DNA from: a virus
Taxonomy: Duplodnaviria; Heunggongvirae; Uroviricota; Caudoviricetes
Reading direction: 5' to 3' (one strand)
Length of the DNA: 21,533 nt
Virus record (IMG/VR): IMGVR_UViG_2713897073_000007
The position numbers and the translations under genes were made by a program. Below, piece after piece: positions 1 to 21,533 of the stretch; the first letter of the stretch is position 1, and the number at the start of each line of letters is the position of its first letter. Under the pieces are notes generated by a model that saw only the letters and a program-made list of their open reading frames with translations, searched no databases and had not been told where the DNA came from.

Positions 1-996
1 TTAACGAACCAGCCAGACCAGCATCAGGATAATCGCGACTAACAGTATCCACAGCGCGGGACGCGTTGCCATATTTTGCAACGTGTCCATCATCGGTGGA
101 AAAGGATTAAGCAGCGGTTGCATAACACGCGGATCAATCCCTTTAACCCGCCGTTGATAAAGCTGATTAAGAATATCCTCGGCCTGGGCAGAAGAAAGCG
201 ATGATTGCGCAGAAAGACCATATTTTTGCTGGATATATGCCGATAACGCCGCCAGTTCACTGGCATCTAAAGGTTGTTTTAGCGTCATCTGTAGTGATTC
301 CAGCGTCGGCGTATTTTGCTGGCTTAGCGTCTGACGCGCCTGTAGCCAGGTCACCAGATGGTTAAACAGTTTCGCTGGAATTAACTCGCCATCTTTCACC
401 CCGGAAAGTTCCAGCATCGATTGCCAGATCTGTTTGCTGGGTTCCCCCGTTGCCGCCGCAAGTTTGGTCACCAGCTGTTTTAGCGCATTGTGCTCCGCCG
501 GTAATAAAGGACGGTCGGTCGCCTCGCGCTGCTGTGGTTGCGGAATAACCATCTTCCCTTCCTGCAACAGGGTGAGAATGGTTTTTAATTGCTCCGGTGA
601 GAGCTGATTCAGCGGCGTCTGACCAAAGTTATGACGGATATAATCCGTGACCGCCTGACGATTATTCCCCAGACGTAAATACTCCCCTAATTGCGCTAAA
701 AGCTGGCGGGCAGAATGGCTTTTTTGCGCGGCCAGCAGACGTTGCGCCAGATTATGCTCAGCGGCAGGGAAGTGACGCGAAAGCAGCGGTGAATCTCCCG
801 ACAGACCAATATCGTGCCTGATACCCGCCCACAGTTCTGCTCTTTGCTGTTGCGTCAGTGAGGTCACTTTCGTCATTAAGCTTTCCAGCGAAGTACGTTG
901 CTGACTGGATAAAGGCTGATTGCCCGTGCCAGACGGCAGATTATCTCCCTGACCTGGTGGTTGCCCAGGAGGAGGGCCGGAAATAGGTTGTATCAT
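1..996 (-). CDS. flk: Flk-like tail-anchored inner-membrane protein (flagellar biosynthesis regulator Flk family); probable host core gene flanking the island
   Basis: 331-aa ORF with Pro/Gln-rich N-terminus (MIQPISGPPPGQPPGQ...) and a single hydrophobic helix at the extreme C-terminus (ALWILLVAIILMLVWLV); size and topology match Flk. Identification is from memory of the family, not a search. Confidence 0.45.
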   Translation of the reverse strand: MIQPISGPPPGQPPGQGDNLPSGTGNQPLSSQQRTSLESLMTKVTSLTQQQRAELWAGIRHDIGLSGDSPLLSRHFPAAEHNLAQRLLAAQKSHSARQLLAQLGEYLRLGNNRQAVTDYIRHNFGQTPLNQLSPEQLKTILTLLQEGKMVIPQPQQREATDRPLLPAEHNALKQLVTKLAAATGEPSKQIWQSMLELSGVKDGELIPAKLFNHLVTWLQARQTLSQQNTPTLESLQMTLKQPLDASELAALSAYIQQKYGLSAQSSLSSAQAEDILNQLYQRRVKGIDPRVMQPLLNPFPPMMDTLQNMATRPALWILLVAIILMLVWLVR

Positions 997-1199
997 TACG
1001 TATCCTTATACCTGAAATCTTCGCAAGTATGCCTGGCCGCGAGATTATGGCACACTTGTCCGGTTAACTCTCGTCTCATACAGGTAACACAAACGTGAAA
1101 ATCCTTGTTGATGAAAAAGATGTTGATTTAACTTTTTGATATAAAAGGATTTGTATCGGCGCATGTCCACGCAGTGACCACATTTTCGAGTTATAGATA

Positions 1200-1231
1200 A
1201 CACAAAGCCCGTTTTCACGGGCTTTGTGTTA
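1200..1231. terminator. Perfect 13-bp inverted repeat hairpin (AACACAAAGCCCG - 6 nt loop - CGGGCTTTGTGTT) just downstream of the minus-strand accessory operon and upstream of flk
   Basis: Read directly from sequence; GC-rich centre with U-rich stem ends; lies 15 nt after the stop at 1246. No clean T-run follows, so terminator function is inferred. Confidence 0.35.
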
Positions 1232-1245
1232 TCTGTGATTGTGGC

Positions 1246-2156
1246 TTAGCCGCATGATTTATACTGTTTCCAGTTACAGGCTTCTTGAAGCGGTTTTAGC
1301 GTGGTTGACAGGCCGTTTAAATTGAAAGTTGCACTTACAGGGCTTTCATTATAAGGGGTTATTTTTGCATACATTTTGTTTGAGTTGGCTAGTTTTCTGA
1401 TGAAGTTAATGTCATTGCCTTTATAAAAAACAGCCTTTGTATCTGTAGATACTAGCCAGTTTCGCTCAACTGCTTTCTGTTTATCAAGGCGATACAGCAT
1501 GCTGGTTTGTTCAAGGCCTAAATATACATCCCAATTAAGAAATACTTCGGTTTTCTTTTCTCGGCAAGCTATAAACAGAGTAGGGGTAACCGCTTCTCCA
1601 AATGGAGTTCTTATATAATCATCACTTTCTAACGATAAAATTACATTTTTCGAATCATCAATTGGCGATGTAGTAATGGATGTGTGCCATTTTCCTGTGT
1701 CTGTGGCTTTCTCTAATTTTGATTTAGATTGCGCAACTTTTTCCTGTGGAAATGGTTTATCGTAGCAGTTTATTCTAGTTTCTTTATCGTTTTCTGCTCG
1801 GCATTTAGATATCTCAGAAAGATTTGGTTGCTGAGCCTCTGTTGTTACTAGCTGTTTCGCTTTAGATTTTGAGCTTACAGGCGGAGTAAATGTTGGAGAA
1901 AAAAACGGTCATAACAAGATAAACGTCTGTCATCATCTTTCTCATCAGGGCATTGATCTCTGCTTTCGAATTTTTCAGCAACTGTCGTTCGAGTCGGTTG
2001 TATTGACTTATCATAACAAGAAAGTCTTTCTTTATTATTTTCTATTGCTCGGCACTGGAGTGATGACTTAAAGTTATTATGCTCAGTTGCTGCGTGAGCA
2101 GGTAGCACACTAATTGATATAAATGATGCACCTATAGAAATAATCATATTTTTCAT
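1246..2156 (-). pseudogene. Secreted Cys-motif repeat protein interrupted by a frameshift at a homopolymer (ORF 1875..2156 carries the signal peptide and two C-x8-9-RLxCYD motifs; the frame open from 1908 down to 1246 carries a third motif and about 220 further codons)
   Basis: N-terminal signal peptide MKNMIISIGASFISISVLPAHA-A. Motifs CRAIENNKERLSCYD, CPDEKDDDRRLSCYD in frame A and CRAENDKETRINCYD in frame B. Frame B has no ATG start of its own before 1500 and opens immediately after a stop at 1909-1911. The A7 run at 1899-1905 (T7 on the coding strand) sits exactly where the frames switch; one extra base would fuse them into an ORF of about 300 aa. Confidence 0.55.
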
Positions 2157-2160
2157 TTTG

Positions 2161-2493
2161 TTATCCCTTTGGTTTAGTAAGAAATACTAAATTTCCGATA
2201 ATGATATTGCAAATAACCCATAAGCCTCCAATAGCAATTAAACCTAAGCCCGTACCAATAACTGTACCGGCTTTTTCGGCATCGGATGTGGCGTTGTTTA
2301 TTATTTCACCCACCTCTCTTAGCCCAACACAAATCGTGTAGATTATAAAAATATTAAATAATATGAAAAAATACTTAATGAGTTCTCCAAAAAATGAACG
2401 TTTAAGTTTTTTCAGTTGTTTGCCACAAGCAGGGCAAGACAATACTGAATCGATCACCTCTTTCTGGCATTCAGGACATTTGATTAATGCCAT
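2161..2493 (-). CDS. Zinc-ribbon membrane protein (N-terminal CPxC...CPxC ribbon followed by two predicted transmembrane helices), AT-rich accessory gene
   Basis: ORF-track ORF 2161..2538; preferred start at the internal Met of MALIKCPECQKE..., which is preceded by AGGAGG at 8-nt spacing. Motifs CPECQ and CPACGK; hydrophobic stretches FFILFNIFIIYTICVGL and LGLIAIGGLWVICNIIIGNLVFL. Ends 4 nt before the downstream gene start at 2156 (operon). Confidence 0.6.
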   Translation of the reverse strand: MALIKCPECQKEVIDSVLSCPACGKQLKKLKRSFFGELIKYFFILFNIFIIYTICVGLREVGEIINNATSDAEKAGTVIGTGLGLIAIGGLWVICNIIIGNLVFLTKPKG

Positions 2494-2640
2494 ATAATCT
2501 GCCTCCTTTGGCTCTCTACTAGCTGACGTTTGTAACAAAACATTTTGATTTTATCAGACTTTTTATTGATATGTGTCAATTGATTAGCTGGTATAGAGTG
2601 AGACAGGATGCCTTATCGACCTTACTCTGGCAACTGATTG

Positions 2641-2660
2641 ACGGGGGATTGCTCCCCCGT
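2641..2660 (-). terminator. Stem-loop ACGGGGGA-TTGC-TCCCCCGT located 10 nt 3' of the hok-like stop; probable 3' structural element or terminator of the hok-like mRNA
   Basis: 8-bp perfect inverted repeat read from sequence; position relative to the toxin ORF matches the structured 3' end known for hok mRNAs. Confidence 0.4.
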
Positions 2661-2670
2661 CGCGGTTTCC

Positions 2671-2811
2671 TTACTGCTTACACTGTAAGAACGCCGCAAA
2701 CTCCGCTCCCCAGAAACTCATCCGTATTTCACACAGCGAACCGTGCAGCATCCAGATGATGAGGATTGCCGTCACGCAGAACGTGATGGCCGTAAGCGAT
2801 TTTTGCGACAT
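2671..2811 (-). CDS. hok: Hok/Gef-family type I toxin, 46 aa (MSQKSLTAITFCVTAILIIWMLHGSLCEIRMSFWGAEFAAFLQCKQ); below the ORF-track length cutoff
   Basis: Hand translation from ATG at 2811-2809 to TAA at 2673-2671, anchored on the ORF-track frames 2729..2941 and 2571..2759. Strong SD AAGGAG 8 nt upstream. N-terminal transmembrane helix followed by the family signature SLCEIR and a C-terminal E-x-AAF-L-x-C motif, as in Hok, Gef and HokA. Confidence 0.7.
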   Translation of the reverse strand: MSQKSLTAITFCVTAILIIWMLHGSLCEIRMSFWGAEFAAFLQCKQ

Positions 2812-2941
2812 AGCACTTGCTCCTTTTCCGGAGAGGCGCTAACCTTTCACTTGTCAAGGTAATGCGGTTAGGGCCTCGGTTAAACAGATATGTTTTCCGG
2901 GGCCTTTCCACATCCGGCCTTCGGGTATTCCCTCCGACCAT
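2729..2941 (-). CDS. mok: mok-like overlapping reading frame (70 aa) that starts upstream of and overlaps the hok-like ORF in another frame
   Basis: ORF-track ORF 2729..2941. The architecture (a roughly 70-codon frame overlapping most of hok, start about 130 nt upstream of the hok ATG) matches hok/mok/sok loci. The sequence itself is low-complexity, so the call rests on architecture. Confidence 0.45.
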   Translation of the reverse strand: MVGGNTRRPDVERPRKTYLFNRGPNRITLTSERLAPLRKRSKCYVAKIAYGHHVLRDGNPHHLDAARFAV

Positions 2942-3001
2942 CAGCCGAAAGGCACCCGCACGTAATCTATCGCTTTTTTGTTACTCCGGCAATTCTGCCT
3001 G

Positions 3002-3262
3002 TTAATCCTGAGGTAAAGGCAAACTCATCTGATTGTTTCCCCTGTGTGAAGCTGGCAGCTCATGCCACGGGATACCTTCTGATGAGTGAACGCCGGAGGC
3101 GTGTTTCGATGTGAATTTATGGAAAGCTTCCAGTGTTGAGAAGCATACGCCGCATTCCAGATTGTTACACTGGTAATACTTTTGCCGCACGGTGTTTGAA
3201 TCATTTTCCGGACGACTGGTGCGGATACGGGCAGATGCGCCACAAAGCGGACAACGGAACAT
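3002..3262 (-). CDS. ogr: Ogr/Delta-family zinc-finger late-gene transcription activator
   Basis: MFRCPLCGASARIRTSR...YYQCNNLECGVCF matches the P2 Ogr pattern MFHCPLC...RTSR...HQCQNVNC as recalled; Cys4 zinc finger; sits directly downstream of gene D as in P2. At 86 aa it is longer than P2 Ogr (72 aa). Confidence 0.85.
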   Translation of the reverse strand: MFRCPLCGASARIRTSRPENDSNTVRQKYYQCNNLECGVCFSTLEAFHKFTSKHASGVHSSEGIPWHELPASHRGNNQMSLPLPQD

Positions 3263-3304: not shown

Positions 3305-4414
3305 TCACTCTGTTTCCGCTATCCATTCCGGGATTTTTGCCTCAAGCTCAAGCTGCGTGGTAAAGCCGCTGTTATCAATGGTGTGCCCGGCTTTTGCAAT
3401 AATCCAGTCCTGATTATCAATCTCGCTTTTAAATCCTGTTACCGTGCCATGCATTTCGGGGTAGAGCTCTGCACGTCCACGCGCCAGCGTGATGGAGAAT
3501 GATGCGGCTCCGCGTTGTAGTTGCTGCCACTTTGCCGCCGCTGCGCGTCTTGCTGCCTGCTCGTTCTGATAAGTCTTGCGTAACACAAACACATTGCCTT
3601 CCGCGCCTTCCATATAATCACCTTCACGGCTGCTGCTTTTCTCCTTTTTGGGTTTTGGCGGTTTACGGCGTTTCACGCTGACTTTTTTCTTTTTCCCGTA
3701 ATTAAGATCAAGCCAGTAGGCGCGTACCCCCGTATACGCCTCGCGGTCAGCAATGCGGAACTGATGGCGATCGCCGCTGCTGCGTGTAATGGCGAACGAG
3801 GGCAACGGCTGGCCCTGTGCGTTCACGCCACCACCTGGCATGATGAATAACAGATTGCCGCTTTTTACCGTGGTGATTGCACCCAGCATTTCCGCCATGC
3901 GCGTAAGGAAGGACATGTCGCTTTCTTCGGTCTGGTCGGCGTGGTCGATTTCGATATCCATCAGCATTTCGCTGATTTGCGGTTTCAGACCATACCGATG
4001 AGCGATGGCGGATACCACACGCTCAACGGTCACATCATGCCAGGACACCTCACGTTTAACGTTAAATTCATCCCAAAAATCTGCGCTTCTGGCTGAAACA
4101 GTCAGCCTGTCCGGCGGTCCTTCGTGAGCGATTTCATCAACAATGTAAGTGCCTTTTTCTGTCAGCGGTTCTCCCTTCCAGCCAATGAGAACCGTCAGGC
4201 GCGCGCCCCGTGGCGGTAGCTGCAACTGACCATCCGCATCATCCAGCGTGATGGTGAGCTGGTCCGCCTCAAATCCCCGGTTGTCGGTCAGTGACAGGCT
4301 CATCAGGCGCTCTGCCACGCCTGACAGCGTTTTACCCTCCGCGAGAATATCAAAATCCGGCATTTTTACGGGGTCTGTGCCCTGACTGAGCAATTGCATG
4401 GTGGTGTCGGTCAT
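3305..4414 (-). CDS. D: P2 gpD-like tail protein (late control gene D family)
   Basis: ORF-track ORF 3305..4546. Protein has the conserved SLSLTDNRGFEADQL block, a central Lys-rich stretch (KKKKVSVKRRKPPKPKKEK) and C-terminal NSGFTTQLEL typical of gpD. Preferred start is the internal Met of MTDTTMQLLSQ (about 4414), preceded by GGGAGGGAG. Confidence 0.85.
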   Translation of the reverse strand: MTDTTMQLLSQGTDPVKMPDFDILAEGKTLSGVAERLMSLSLTDNRGFEADQLTITLDDADGQLQLPPRGARLTVLIGWKGEPLTEKGTYIVDEIAHEGPPDRLTVSARSADFWDEFNVKREVSWHDVTVERVVSAIAHRYGLKPQISEMLMDIEIDHADQTEESDMSFLTRMAEMLGAITTVKSGNLLFIMPGGGVNAQGQPLPSFAITRSSGDRHQFRIADREAYTGVRAYWLDLNYGKKKKVSVKRRKPPKPKKEKSSSREGDYMEGAEGNVFVLRKTYQNEQAARRAAAAKWQQLQRGAASFSITLARGRAELYPEMHGTVTGFKSEIDNQDWIIAKAGHTIDNSGFTTQLELEAKIPEWIAETE

Positions 4415-10147: not shown

Positions 10148-10159
10148 TTTAATGCTGGC

Positions 10160-10191
10160 CACTCATACCTGGTAATAAGTGGCCAGTCTTA
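10160..10191. repeat. 9-bp inverted repeat CTGGCCACT - 14 nt - AGTGGCCAG immediately 3' of U, at the transition from GC-normal phage DNA to AT-rich cargo
   Basis: Read from sequence; could be a terminator for the late tail operon or a remnant of a recombination site. Confidence 0.3.
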
Positions 10192-10309
10192 ACACTCACC
10201 ATTTGATTGCACCCGCGTTAACGATTTGTTACTGGGTATCAGACATGCTGGATAGCCAGTAGAAACATACCATTAAAATTATTACAATAATTGGTCACAT
10301 GATTATCTT

Positions 10310-10795
10310 ATGCTGAATAATAGAGATATGAATATTAATGAACTTAAAGACTGTATTCACTATGAAGTAATCGGTAGCGAGCGTCCTTTCTCCTGGCGAA
10401 AGGCAATTGTTCGCGCAATAAAACATAGAAGACTTCGTTATTTATTTTGGTGGCGCATAGCCAAATACCTTTTTGATAAAGGCGGATACTGCCGGAAGAT
10501 TGCGGGGAAAATAGAACGTTTCATTCTTGATAAATATAATGTAACAGTCCCTTTAACTGTAAATATAGGGAAAGGCTTTGATATTTCTTATCTCAACAGT
10601 GTTGTTATCGGTCACAAAGTAACAATCGGTGAAAATTGTTCAATAAAACCGGGGGTAACTATTGGGCTACGTGGTGATTTTAATGATATGGATATTGTTA
10701 TAGGACATAATGTGACCATTGGTTGTAATGCCACCATTCTTGGTGGCAAAGTGCGTATAGGAAACAATGTCACAATAGGTGCTCATGCATTGGTA
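10310..10795 (+). pseudogene. 3'-truncated hexapeptide-repeat (left-handed beta-helix) acyltransferase, AT-rich cargo gene
   Basis: Tandem hexapeptide repeats VTIGENCSIKPGVTIG / IVIGHNVTIGCNATILGGKVRIGNNVTIGAHALV; the last 23 aa of the ORF (TTTFKNFKESLTITSFFRIVAVK) are the reverse-strand reading of the tail-fibre fragment, so the gene is cut at about 10795. Confidence 0.6.
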
Positions 10796-11290
10796 ACCAC
10801 CACCTTCAAGAACTTCAAGGAGTCCCTGACCATAACTTCCTTCTTCCGGATAGTTGCGGTCAAATGAAGCGATTGAGCCACTACTGTTTCGCCATAAACC
10901 AAGATGCTCTGCGCCTCCGAGCGTGTTCAGGTCAATGGTTGTGCTCAGGGGGCGTGTTGCAGACTGAACCTGACGCCAGTAACTCCACGGACCGTCTGAA
11001 CCATTCCATGTGCCAGAAAGGTTGCGCATATAAACATTGCCTGTTCTGGTGGTGTAACGCTGCATTCCTGCAAAATTACCGCCATTGAATACCTCCAGTA
11101 CACCGACTGCACCGTCTTCAGGGAAATTTTTAGCAGCCGTCGCGTTAGTGGATGTAGCTTTAGACCAGACGCCAAGATAAGCCTTAACGGGACCAAATGT
11201 ATTCAAGTCAGCATCAAGCGGCATTTCGCCATTGTTTTTCATAAACGTCAGGCTGGTAACGCCAACATTGTCCAGAAAAGCGCCCTTATC
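10796..11290 (-). pseudogene. Internal fragment of a phage tail fibre gene (gpH-like), truncated at both ends
   Basis: ORF-track ORF 10667..11242 with its frame open upstream to about 11290. Gly/Asn/Thr/Ser-rich fibre-like sequence (GVLEVFNGGNFAGMQRYTTRTGNVYMRNLSGTWNGSDGPWSYW...GQGLLEVLEGGGY). The final 40 aa are an antisense read of the acyltransferase DNA. Family assignment is by composition and synteny only. Confidence 0.45.
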
Positions 11291-15717: not shown

Positions 15718-15896
15718 GGTGTGGCCTCTTTGGTTGTAAGTTTTGAAAACTCACCATCCAGAGCTGCGAAACTGTGGGTGGCGAGACGTACGGGGTTCGC
15801 AGTACCGGCAACCAAAGAACCCGGCCCGACCGAAGTCGGCCCCGTACGCCCCGCCATAATTCTGACGCGAAAAAAACGTGGCAATACAGTACGCAC

Positions 15897-15917
15897 AAAA
15901 AAACCGCTGGCGCGGTT
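15897..15917 (-). terminator. Hairpin ACCGC-NNNN-GCGGT followed by a T7 run on the minus strand
   Basis: Read from sequence (plus strand shows A7 then ACCGCTGGCGCGGTT); lies in the 367-bp non-coding gap between the SPFH module and the 76-aa gene. Confidence 0.4.
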
Positions 15918-16053
15918 GTGCGCTTTGGTTGTCAGCAGGCTGCGAAACCCGGCACCCGTTTTATGAGGTGCAGCGAAAATGTAACCTGACTGATTGCGGC
16001 ATGGCAAGCGGTTTTTTTGTGAGAACGGCATACTAAAAAATCCTGATACTGCT

Positions 16054-20528: not shown

Positions 20529-21533
20529 ATGTCGATTAAGAAGCTCGAAGATGGTCGTTATTTGCTGGACATCAGGCCGAACGGACGCAAGGGAAAGCGC
20601 GTGCGTAAGGTATTTGACAAAAAATCGGTAGCGGTGGCCACTGAACGCTACATCATGGCGAACGCTGAAAAGCGGGAATATATACAGGGCTACCGTGATC
20701 GTCGAACGCTAAATGATTTGCTTGAGTTGTGGTGGATGTATCACGGCCAGCACAGGCGTAAGGCGGAAGAAGACCGAAAACAACTGCGCAACATAATCAA
20801 TGAGCTTGGCGCTGATATGCAGGCTGTGGATCTTGATAAGCTGAAAATTATCGCGTGGCGTTCTCAAAAGATAGCTGAAGGATTGAAACCGTCATCTGCT
20901 AACAGGTACATGAATCGGTTATCCGGAATGTTTACCGTGCTGAAAAAAATAGGTCTTTGGGATGCAGAACATCCAGTAAGGGGAATTTCTATTCTTTATG
21001 TATCTCCACGAGAAATGGCGTTCCTGTCACAGAAGGAAGTGGCGCTATTGCTCGATACACTGGAGGGCGACTACTGGCGTGTTGCGCTTTTGTGTTTAAG
21101 CACAGGGGCGCGCTGGAGTGAAGCTTGTAAGCTTCGTGGTGAACAGATAGTTCATAACCGTGTAACGTTTCTTGAAACCAAAAATGGCCGGAAGAGAACA
21201 GTGCCAATTTCGCAGGCAGTTTGTGAGGCGATCAAAACCAGAGAAACAGGCGGCTTGTTTGAGGTGAAGTACCGGGAATTCTGCCTGGCGCTGAAAAGAG
21301 TTAAGCCCGATTTACCAAAAGGCCAGGCTGCACATGTGCTGCGGCATACGTTCGCCAGCCATTTTGTGATGAACGGAGGAAACATTATTGCGCTTCAGAA
21401 GATTCTTGGTCACGCAACCATTCAGCAAACAATGGCATATGCGCATTTTGCACCGGATTACCTGCAGGATGCGGTGGCCCTTAATCCGCTGAAAGGTGGC
21501 GTAAGTGTCCACGCAGTGTCCACGGGGGATTAA
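20529..21533 (+). CDS. int: Tyrosine recombinase, P2-type integrase
   Basis: ORF-track ORF 20514..21533; MSIKKLEDGRYLLDIRPNGRKGKRVRK N-terminus, LSTGARWSEA, HVLRHTFASHF...GGNIIALQKILGH...MAYAHFAPDYLQDAVALNPL catalytic-domain motifs match recalled P2 Int. Preferred start at 20529 (GGAGGG 7 nt upstream). The stop coincides with the window end, so the att site lies outside the window. Confidence 0.9.
   Translation: MSIKKLEDGRYLLDIRPNGRKGKRVRKVFDKKSVAVATERYIMANAEKREYIQGYRDRRTLNDLLELWWMYHGQHRRKAEEDRKQLRNIINELGADMQAVDLDKLKIIAWRSQKIAEGLKPSSANRYMNRLSGMFTVLKKIGLWDAEHPVRGISILYVSPREMAFLSQKEVALLLDTLEGDYWRVALLCLSTGARWSEACKLRGEQIVHNRVTFLETKNGRKRTVPISQAVCEAIKTRETGGLFEVKYREFCLALKRVKPDLPKGQAAHVLRHTFASHFVMNGGNIIALQKILGHATIQQTMAYAHFAPDYLQDAVALNPLKGGVSVHAVSTGD

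Follow-up and report, generated by a model that had tools for sequence, protein, structure and literature searches.

The DNA considered here, IMG/VR virus record IMGVR_UViG_2713897073_000007 (21,533 nt, hereafter the window; coordinates are window positions, position 1 being its first letter, except where region numbering is indicated), is read, with a probability of about 0.8, as the left part of a defective P2-like prophage of the PhiSM/P88 type (Peduoviridae, Xuanwuvirus-like), inserted by a tyrosine integrase at a site of 17-20 bp within the opening codons of pdxB, with the interval between ogr and the phage attachment site (attP) filled with cargo and a hok/sok-type toxin locus abutting ogr. 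The left attachment site (attL; 1098-1117), which falls within the 5' end of pdxB, sets the boundary between prophage and host, and the attachment site is displaced 1.9 kb past the toxin locus rather than missing. From position 1118 onward the window consists entirely of prophage, and hok, a zinc-ribbon gene and a VasI/TagO-like gene are phage cargo inside an att-bounded element. In a common Escherichia coli phage clade this toxin locus belongs to the standard cargo and is nothing unusual, and the prophage/host boundary is settled for the window. An earlier interpretation made from the sequence alone (the preliminary description), in which the toxin locus was noted to occupy the place where an attachment site was expected, is partly supported.

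Attachment site and prophage boundary

The expectation of an attachment site directly after ogr derives from phage P2, in which ogr is indeed the last gene before att according to the annotation of NC_001895, and in which the ogr stop is followed within approximately 100 bp by a terminator, an integrase (Int) arm site, an integration host factor (IHF) site and the attP core. Given this spacing the expectation was sound for P2, but in the P88/PhiSM clade the corresponding gap holds cargo. In the window, the attL core is the 20-bp sequence AAAATCCTTGTTGATGAAAA (1098-1117, plus strand), identified as an exact direct repeat in the genome of E. coli 99-3165 (NZ_CP029981.1) and by a four-way alignment of attachment sites. 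Over the first 11.8 kb of the window, and over both collinear blocks, this genome shows 100% identity, and its element lies between flk and pdxB with the integrase gene oriented toward pdxB. The second copy of AAAATCCTTGTTGATGAAAA lies 24,768 bp away, after the integrase and immediately before the rest of pdxB. Such a repeat, shared between the 1000-3000 interval and the sequence past the integrase, was what the preliminary description had proposed to look for. The core occurs once in the window, against a chance expectation of 0.01, and as the int stop codon coincides with the end of the window, the second core is placed approximately 183 bp past position 21533. The earlier statement that the integrase-proximal copy lies beyond the window was therefore correct, attL being the only copy within it, and the accompanying statement on the boundary is refined, in that the boundary can be set.

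At 1101-1117 the core contains the 17-bp sequence ATCCTTGTTGATGAAAA, which Magaziner et al. (2019; PMC6456863) mapped experimentally as the attP/attB of PhiSM, a phage of Citrobacter rodentium; in E. coli K-12 the site lies 6 bp into pdxB. Identity to this experimental site is accompanied by a cognate integrase, the product of the gene at 20529-21533 (plus strand; the last position of the window is its stop codon), which is identical to PhiSM Int at 329 of 334 residues by BLASTP (99%). The element further shares with PhiSM at pdxB the VasI-like and zinc-ribbon cargo and the phage TTG codon that rebuilds pdxB at the right attachment site (attR), and differs in that PhiSM is a complete, transmissible phage of 36.75 kb. 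The empty site of K-12 has a single core copy, with only 98 bp from flk to the GTG start of pdxB and neither hok nor other cargo between the two genes. When the attP of the free phage Chuche, attR, attL and the K-12 attB were aligned, attL had the structure B-core-P' and attR the structure P-core-B', an exact fit to Campbell recombination, and the order in Chuche itself is int, P arm, core, P' arm, cargo, hok, ogr.

The sequence following the core has the components of an attP arm. The P' arm (1118-1190, plus strand) is homologous to the post-core sequence of Chuche and PhiSM and carries two Int arm-type repeats TGTCCACgcagTGACCAC (1164-1181), matching the Int arm sites annotated in P2 (TGTGGACA/TGTGGTCA), which are nearly the same sequence; a sister pair belonging to the P arm is located at 21506-21523, within the 3' end of int. 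A putative IHF site, recognised from a consensus match on reading the sequence (TATCAAAAAGTTA, 1129-1141, minus strand), lies between the arm site and the core, as in P2. The order of ogr-side arm repeats, IHF site, core and a second arm pair inside the 3' end of int, with two repeats per arm, is thus common to both phages, whereas the arm site lies approximately 39-40 bp past the ogr stop in P2 and is separated from ogr by approximately 1.8 kb of cargo in the window, and the core and host target differ. At the border of P' arm and cargo, direct reading identified a GC-rich hairpin (1195-1232; AACACAAAGCCCG-loop-CGGGCTTTGTGTT) that is conserved in 500465-2. It is the positional equivalent of the terminator of the P2 ogr/F operon and a putative terminator itself.

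On the host side, flk (1-996, minus strand) is 100% identical to its counterpart in NZ_CP029981.1 and is annotated as flk both there and in K-12. The earlier identification of an AT-rich two-gene operon (31-41% GC) followed by the probable host gene flk is borne out. Alignment with the K-12 flk-pdxB empty site also identified a pdxB' stub (1095-1139, plus strand), in which the native GTG and the first 7 pdxB codons are fused to the P' arm (MKILVDEKDVDLTF*). This orphan frame of 14 codons retains the native pdxB promoter and start and faces into the prophage, convergent with the cargo genes, with the hairpin at 1195-1232 in between. At attR (approximately 183 bp past the window end; 30840-30895, region numbering), phage DNA replaces the promoter, Shine-Dalgarno (SD) sequence and GTG start of pdxB, and a phage-borne AAGGAG with an in-frame TTG (MSETEKGL-KILVDEN...) rebuilds the 5' end of the gene. 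A phage-supplied pdxB start at attR was proposed for PhiSM (PMC6456863). The PGAP annotation of the attR-bearing genome places the pdxB start at Met9 instead.

Cargo between ogr and attP across the phage clade

The same gene occupies the same place in phages that are free or transmissible: hok lies between ogr and attP in Chuche, PhiSM, P88 and P88_4B11. In P88 it stands alone in this interval. In PhiSM, 500465-2 and PhiR44_2 the layout is VasI/TagO-like gene, zinc-ribbon gene, hok, ogr, to which P88_4B11 adds two further genes before hok, and in Chuche it is a DNA methyltransferase gene, com, hok, ogr. The hok-ogr pair was also found in prophages beside serS (ST131), beside raiA, and at pdxB with a methyltransferase cassette. 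From this range of layouts and sites, hok is the constant ogr-proximal member of the interval, with cassettes stacking between hok and the P' arm; the cassette junctions all fall a few nucleotides past the 3' fbi box of hok. A query composed of hok and ogr was covered over at least 80% of its length in 1178 of 5426 complete E. coli genomes (~22%), at several integration sites. PhiSM forms lysogens in K-12 (PMC6456863), from which it follows that the cargo is packaged and transmitted.

These comparisons bear directly on the alternative that the AT-rich operon and the hok locus belong to the host, or form a separate islet inserted at the same junction, with the true end of the prophage beside ogr. 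Such an arrangement could be argued from the position of the P2 core, some 100 bp from ogr, and from the foreign composition of the AT-rich block. However, there is no att-like repeat near 2950-3000, core and P' arm occupy 1098-1190, neither hok nor any of the AT-rich genes is present at the empty site of K-12, packaged and transmitted phage genomes hold the same genes between ogr and attP, and hok accompanies ogr to other integration sites. The alternative is accordingly considered highly improbable, and the separate islet, which the preliminary description had raised beside the cargo interpretation, is rejected: the finding that would have made the locus host DNA, a core repeat adjacent to ogr with hok outside it in prophage-free strains, has no counterpart around 2950-3000 or at the K-12 site. 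The cargo interpretation stands, the toxin locus and the operon at the ogr end of the prophage both being inside the att-bounded element and shared with free phages.

The toxin family, the Hok protein, the phage clade, the attachment site and the VasI-like cargo are each already annotated or published. Literature searches on hok in P2-like phages and Peduoviridae returned no paper describing a linkage of hok to ogr, and the constancy of this linkage seems to be undescribed. In the GenBank record of PhiSM (OR565851.1; 1396-2293, region numbering) hok is unannotated, and it is likewise unmentioned in the accompanying paper (PMC6456863). The product labels of this record seem to be shifted by one gene, with 'ogr' on gene D and 'late control gene D' on the sheath gene.

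Structure of the hok/sok locus

The hok/sok-type locus extends over approximately 2606-2992 on the minus strand and begins 10 nt past the ogr stop. The preliminary description had assigned the interval 2540-3001 to it; the locus itself is confirmed, but 2540-2605 is the leader of the next gene and lies outside. The Hok coding sequence (2671-2811, minus strand) specifies 46 amino acids (MSQKSLTAITFCVTAILIIWMLHGSLCEIRMSFWGAEFAAFLQCKQ) and is identified by Pfam HOK_GEF (PF01848; 29.9 bits against a cut-off of 22), by a full-length match to PHROG 251 'MokW-like host killing' (80.6 bits), and by identity to RefSeq WP_000078916.1, annotated as a 'Hok/Gef family protein'. As in the rest of the family, it is a peptide of about 50 residues with an N-terminal membrane helix and an LCE motif, which can be read directly (...IIWMLHGSLCEIR...). 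With the NCBIfam HokA equivalog the score was 34 bits against a cut-off of 89, far enough below it that the protein is not a HokA orthologue and belongs to a separate subfamily. In the P88-type peduoviruses (P88, P88_4B11, Chuche, 500465-2 and PhiSM) the gene, its place after ogr, its promoters and its leader are the same, and the Hok protein is identical to that of the window or differs by 1-2 residues.

The signals around the coding sequence were identified by reading the sequence. On the minus strand, a putative sigma-70-like hok promoter consists of TTGCCG (2992-2987), a 17-nt spacer and TAGATT (2969-2964), and is invariant in all the P2-like copies. Between the ogr stop and this promoter no terminator-like site was found, in contrast to P2, which has a terminator after ogr. 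The predicted hok mRNA (2957-2606) would start near 2957 (GGGUGCCUUUCGG...), with the 5' tac box at 2957-2946, an SD sequence AAGGAG at 2825-2820, a hairpin 3' of the coding sequence at 2662-2639 and the 3' fbi box AAGGCAUCC at 2614-2606, a layout common to seven homologous phage and prophage loci. On the opposite strand, a putative sok promoter comprises TTGCTC (2817-2822), a 17-nt spacer and TAACCT (2840-2845), from which a candidate Sok antisense RNA would run from approximately 2852 to 2910-2920; the boxes are kept in all seven loci. The sok promoter of plasmid R1 occupies the same relative place within the hok leader. Both promoters, the SD sequence and the open reading frame (ORF) are conserved across the seven loci.

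Folding predictions agree with this anatomy. In the minimum free energy (MFE) and centroid structures of a 362-nt hok transcript, nt 1-12 pair with nt 340-352, with a z-score of -4.98 relative to dinucleotide shuffles, and in a transcript lacking the 3' end, the 5' end is predicted to refold locally on itself. The predicted long-range pairing is the tac-fbi closure characteristic of hok mRNAs, and the GGGUGCC/GGCACCC boxes are kept in 7 of 7 loci, such that the helix is supported by conservation but not by covariation. The candidate Sok RNA is complementary to hok mRNA nt 38-106 and is predicted to form a strong hairpin (-31.4 kcal/mol, z-score -4.45); its stretch is also covered by the Rfam sok match, which is below the gathering score.

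The classical hok/mok/sok (parB) system of plasmid R1 provides the established point of comparison. Both have a small Hok-family membrane toxin, an antisense promoter (putative in the window) that converges on hok from within the leader, tac-fbi closure (predicted in the window) and an AAGGAG SD sequence, whereas the R1 toxin has 52 residues and that of the window 46, and the window locus is phage-borne, has no conserved mok frame with a start, and scores below the gathering threshold of the Rfam sok model. A conserved mok frame with a usable start codon was sought among the copies and not found. All copies have an open frame that overlaps the hok start, with an upstream limit and possible starts that vary; the TTG at 2857, a possible mok start, is present in this window only, and P88, Chuche and 500465-2 have a stop codon there. 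In the absence of a conserved mok, the way in which Sok blocks Hok translation may differ from that in plasmid R1.

Within temperate phages, the member of the family with a tested role is hokW-sokW of the Stx2 prophage Sp5, where induction removed Sok, HokW was produced and phage release doubled (Takada et al. 2021; PMC8621323). It resembles the window locus as a hok/sok-family module carried as temperate-phage cargo, and is the only phage-borne member with such a test, but belongs to another locus and subfamily, the hokW primers encoding MKQQKAM.... Sp5 of strain Sakai (NC_002695.2; 1440-1900, region numbering) also has an unannotated copy of the window's own hok subfamily just downstream of lom, approximately 82% identical and with an intact 46-residue ORF. 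That this copy might be hokW-sokW itself was considered and rejected, since the primers of PMC8621323 place hokW at a different locus.

Decay of the prophage and of the toxin locus

The element is, as the preliminary description had supposed, a defective derivative; it lacks head, lysis and tail-fibre genes. It retains roughly 20.6 kb, against 36.75 kb in complete PhiSM, and mapping to PhiSM indicated the loss of the invertase and tail-fibre block; of W, V, S, R, the lysis genes, X and L; of M and O and part of N; and of Q, the par genes and most of both P and A. These large deletions, together with PGAP pseudogene flags, leave it short of a complete P2-type set for morphogenesis, lysis and replication. 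At one deletion junction (11836/11863) a fragment of baseplate gene J is joined to a fragment of capsid gene N, removing approximately 4.2 kb (W, V, S, R, the lysis genes, X and L) that are present in NZ_CP029981.1; this junction was not found in any complete E. coli genome searched. Intact copies of int, C and cox remain in the window together with an undamaged attL/P' arm, and NZ_CP029981.1 retains an intact attR. With these components in place, excision of the element, and a penalty on its loss, are conceivable.

Decay extends into the surroundings of hok, and several observations weigh against the proposed working of the module. A deletion of 81-84 bp between short repeats has removed the hairpin found 3' of fbi in PhiSM and 500465-2; in P88, Chuche and the ST131 prophage a canonical terminator stands at this place. 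The fbi box has undergone a C-to-U change, with a G-U pair still possible; in both respects the window differs from the other P88-type copies. The 3' end of the hok RNA may therefore be formed or processed abnormally, and the copy may be inert. In addition, the tac-fbi helix is without covariation across the seven loci, which is explained by the invariance of the 5' box; the Rfam sok model, which has a gathering score of 59, reached 45.8 bits (E 5e-9) over 2957-2798; the mok frame described above is not conserved; and the characterised phage locus, hokW-sokW of Sp5, is a different hok locus. With the hairpin gone, transcripts of hok probably continue into the zinc-ribbon and VasI-like genes up to the hairpin at 1232-1195.

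The cassette past hok is itself partly disrupted. Its first gene (2161-2493, minus strand) encodes a zinc-ribbon membrane protein of 110 residues (RefSeq-annotated; Pfam Zn_Ribbon_1; PHROG 6586 at 114 bits, function unknown in PHROG). The second, for a VasI/TagO-like periplasmic protein (1246-2156, minus strand), gives Pfam VasI and TIGR03360 matches on both of its halves: a run of 7 A at 1899-1905, compared with 8 A in relatives such as 500465-2, shifts the frame and splits the gene into two ORFs, whereas 500465-2 and PhiSM have a single ORF of 297 residues. Simple decay or homopolymer slippage are both possible causes of the 7-A run. In the relatives, the two genes form one two-gene unit.

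A related insertion gives a further view of decay at this site. In strain CFSAN004176 (NZ_CP014583.1; 5785-7244, region numbering), where an element occupies the same pdxB site, ogr and D have given way to an IS600 that cuts into the hok leader but leaves the Hok coding sequence, a disruption that resembles the chromosomal hok loci of K-12 inactivated by insertion sequences.

Taken together, the deletion of the post-fbi hairpin, the fbi substitution, the frameshift in the adjoining VasI-like gene, the large deletions of the prophage and the IS600 insertion in CFSAN004176 could all be accommodated if this copy were a dead relic, a nonfunctional toxin-antitoxin module decaying along with its prophage. 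The Hok ORF is nevertheless intact and its product identical to that encoded by many other genomes, neither promoter nor the SD sequence has changed, and the altered fbi box pairs via G-U such that the closed fold remains the predicted MFE structure. A relic is consequently regarded as unlikely for this particular copy.

Possible functions of the module

The steps by which the toxin would act are inferred here from the anatomy of the locus and from knowledge of the family; what the analysis itself establishes is the structure of the locus and its status as cargo. A constitutive promoter would yield a stable hok mRNA, held closed by base-pairing between the 5' end and the fbi box at the 3' end, and the putative convergent promoter in the leader would yield a short, unstable Sok RNA that pairs with hok mRNA nt 38-106 and blocks Hok synthesis. 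Upon loss of the DNA or a stop in transcription, Sok would decay, trimming at the 3' end and refolding of the hok mRNA would follow, and the 46-residue Hok protein would be made and depolarise the inner membrane. Loss of the element would thereby be penalised, and in a remnant without head or lysis genes this is the only role that could still matter or be selected. A role of hok in retaining the element, as the preliminary description had suggested, is plausible on this basis, and whether hok/sok modules keep decaying prophages in genomes is a reasonable and testable question.

In intact relatives, hok/sok might also assist lysis or exclude other phages. A mainly lytic role, in which the module acts at induction as an auxiliary killing or lysis factor rather than as an addiction device, has a precedent in hokW-sokW of Sp5 (PMC8621323) and could draw on the position of the hok promoter, which shares the strand of ogr and begins 10 nt past its stop without an intervening terminator, where late transcription could read in. 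The precedent concerns a different hok subfamily and locus, read-through and interference are inference only, and such a role is not selectable in the window element, which has neither lysis nor head genes. It is accordingly considered rather improbable as the main function in the intact phages.

A more specific form of this idea follows from the same arrangement. Because the hok promoter abuts the ogr stop without a terminator, late transcription of D and ogr could enter hok and oppose sok. The hok/sok modules of P88/PhiSM-type phages may, as a speculative proposal with the odds well against it, be wired into the late transcription unit, such that read-through from D-ogr collides with the sok promoter and the module serves as a timed host-killing or lysis-assist factor during induction and as an addiction device in the prophage state. 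If this were true, the constant ogr-adjacent position in approximately 22% of complete E. coli genomes would reflect selection on the coupling.

Exclusion of other phages would take the form of abortive infection, in which an incoming lytic phage stops transcription, Sok decays and Hok kills the lysogen. The att-proximal end of temperate phages commonly gathers cargo of a defence type, which speaks in favour of this possibility. So does the lowered plating of T4 by hok/sok of plasmid R1 (cited in PMC8621323). A search with PADLOC, however, returned no defence-system model matching Hok, the zinc-ribbon protein or the VasI-like protein, and abortive infection is held to be a doubtful explanation.

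Other features of the prophage

Upstream of hok, on the same minus strand, are ogr (3002-3262; late transcription activator, 86 residues; Pfam Ogr_Delta, 5e-14, and RefSeq annotation; TAA stop at 3004-3002) and gene D (3305-4414; tail/late control protein; Pfam Phage_GPD), the latter collinear with D of PhiSM and Chuche. The FI-U tail genes lie on the strand opposite to D-ogr. An inversion caused by decay was considered and rejected, as P88, Chuche and PhiSM show the same order, which is therefore native to the clade.

Compared with PhiSM, the window has at 10152-11286 approximately 1.1 kb containing a serine acetyltransferase-like gene (ORF 10310-10867; PGAP annotation) in place of the invertase and tail-fibre genes. 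In the early region of the prophage, on the minus strand at 15774-15971, strong Rfam matches identified a C4 antisense RNA (RF01695, 87 bits) adjoining isrK (RF01394, 66 bits), the equivalent position in PhiSM being approximately 31.3-31.5 kb. The pair looks like an antisense control module of the P1 immI or Gifsy kind in a P2-like phage.

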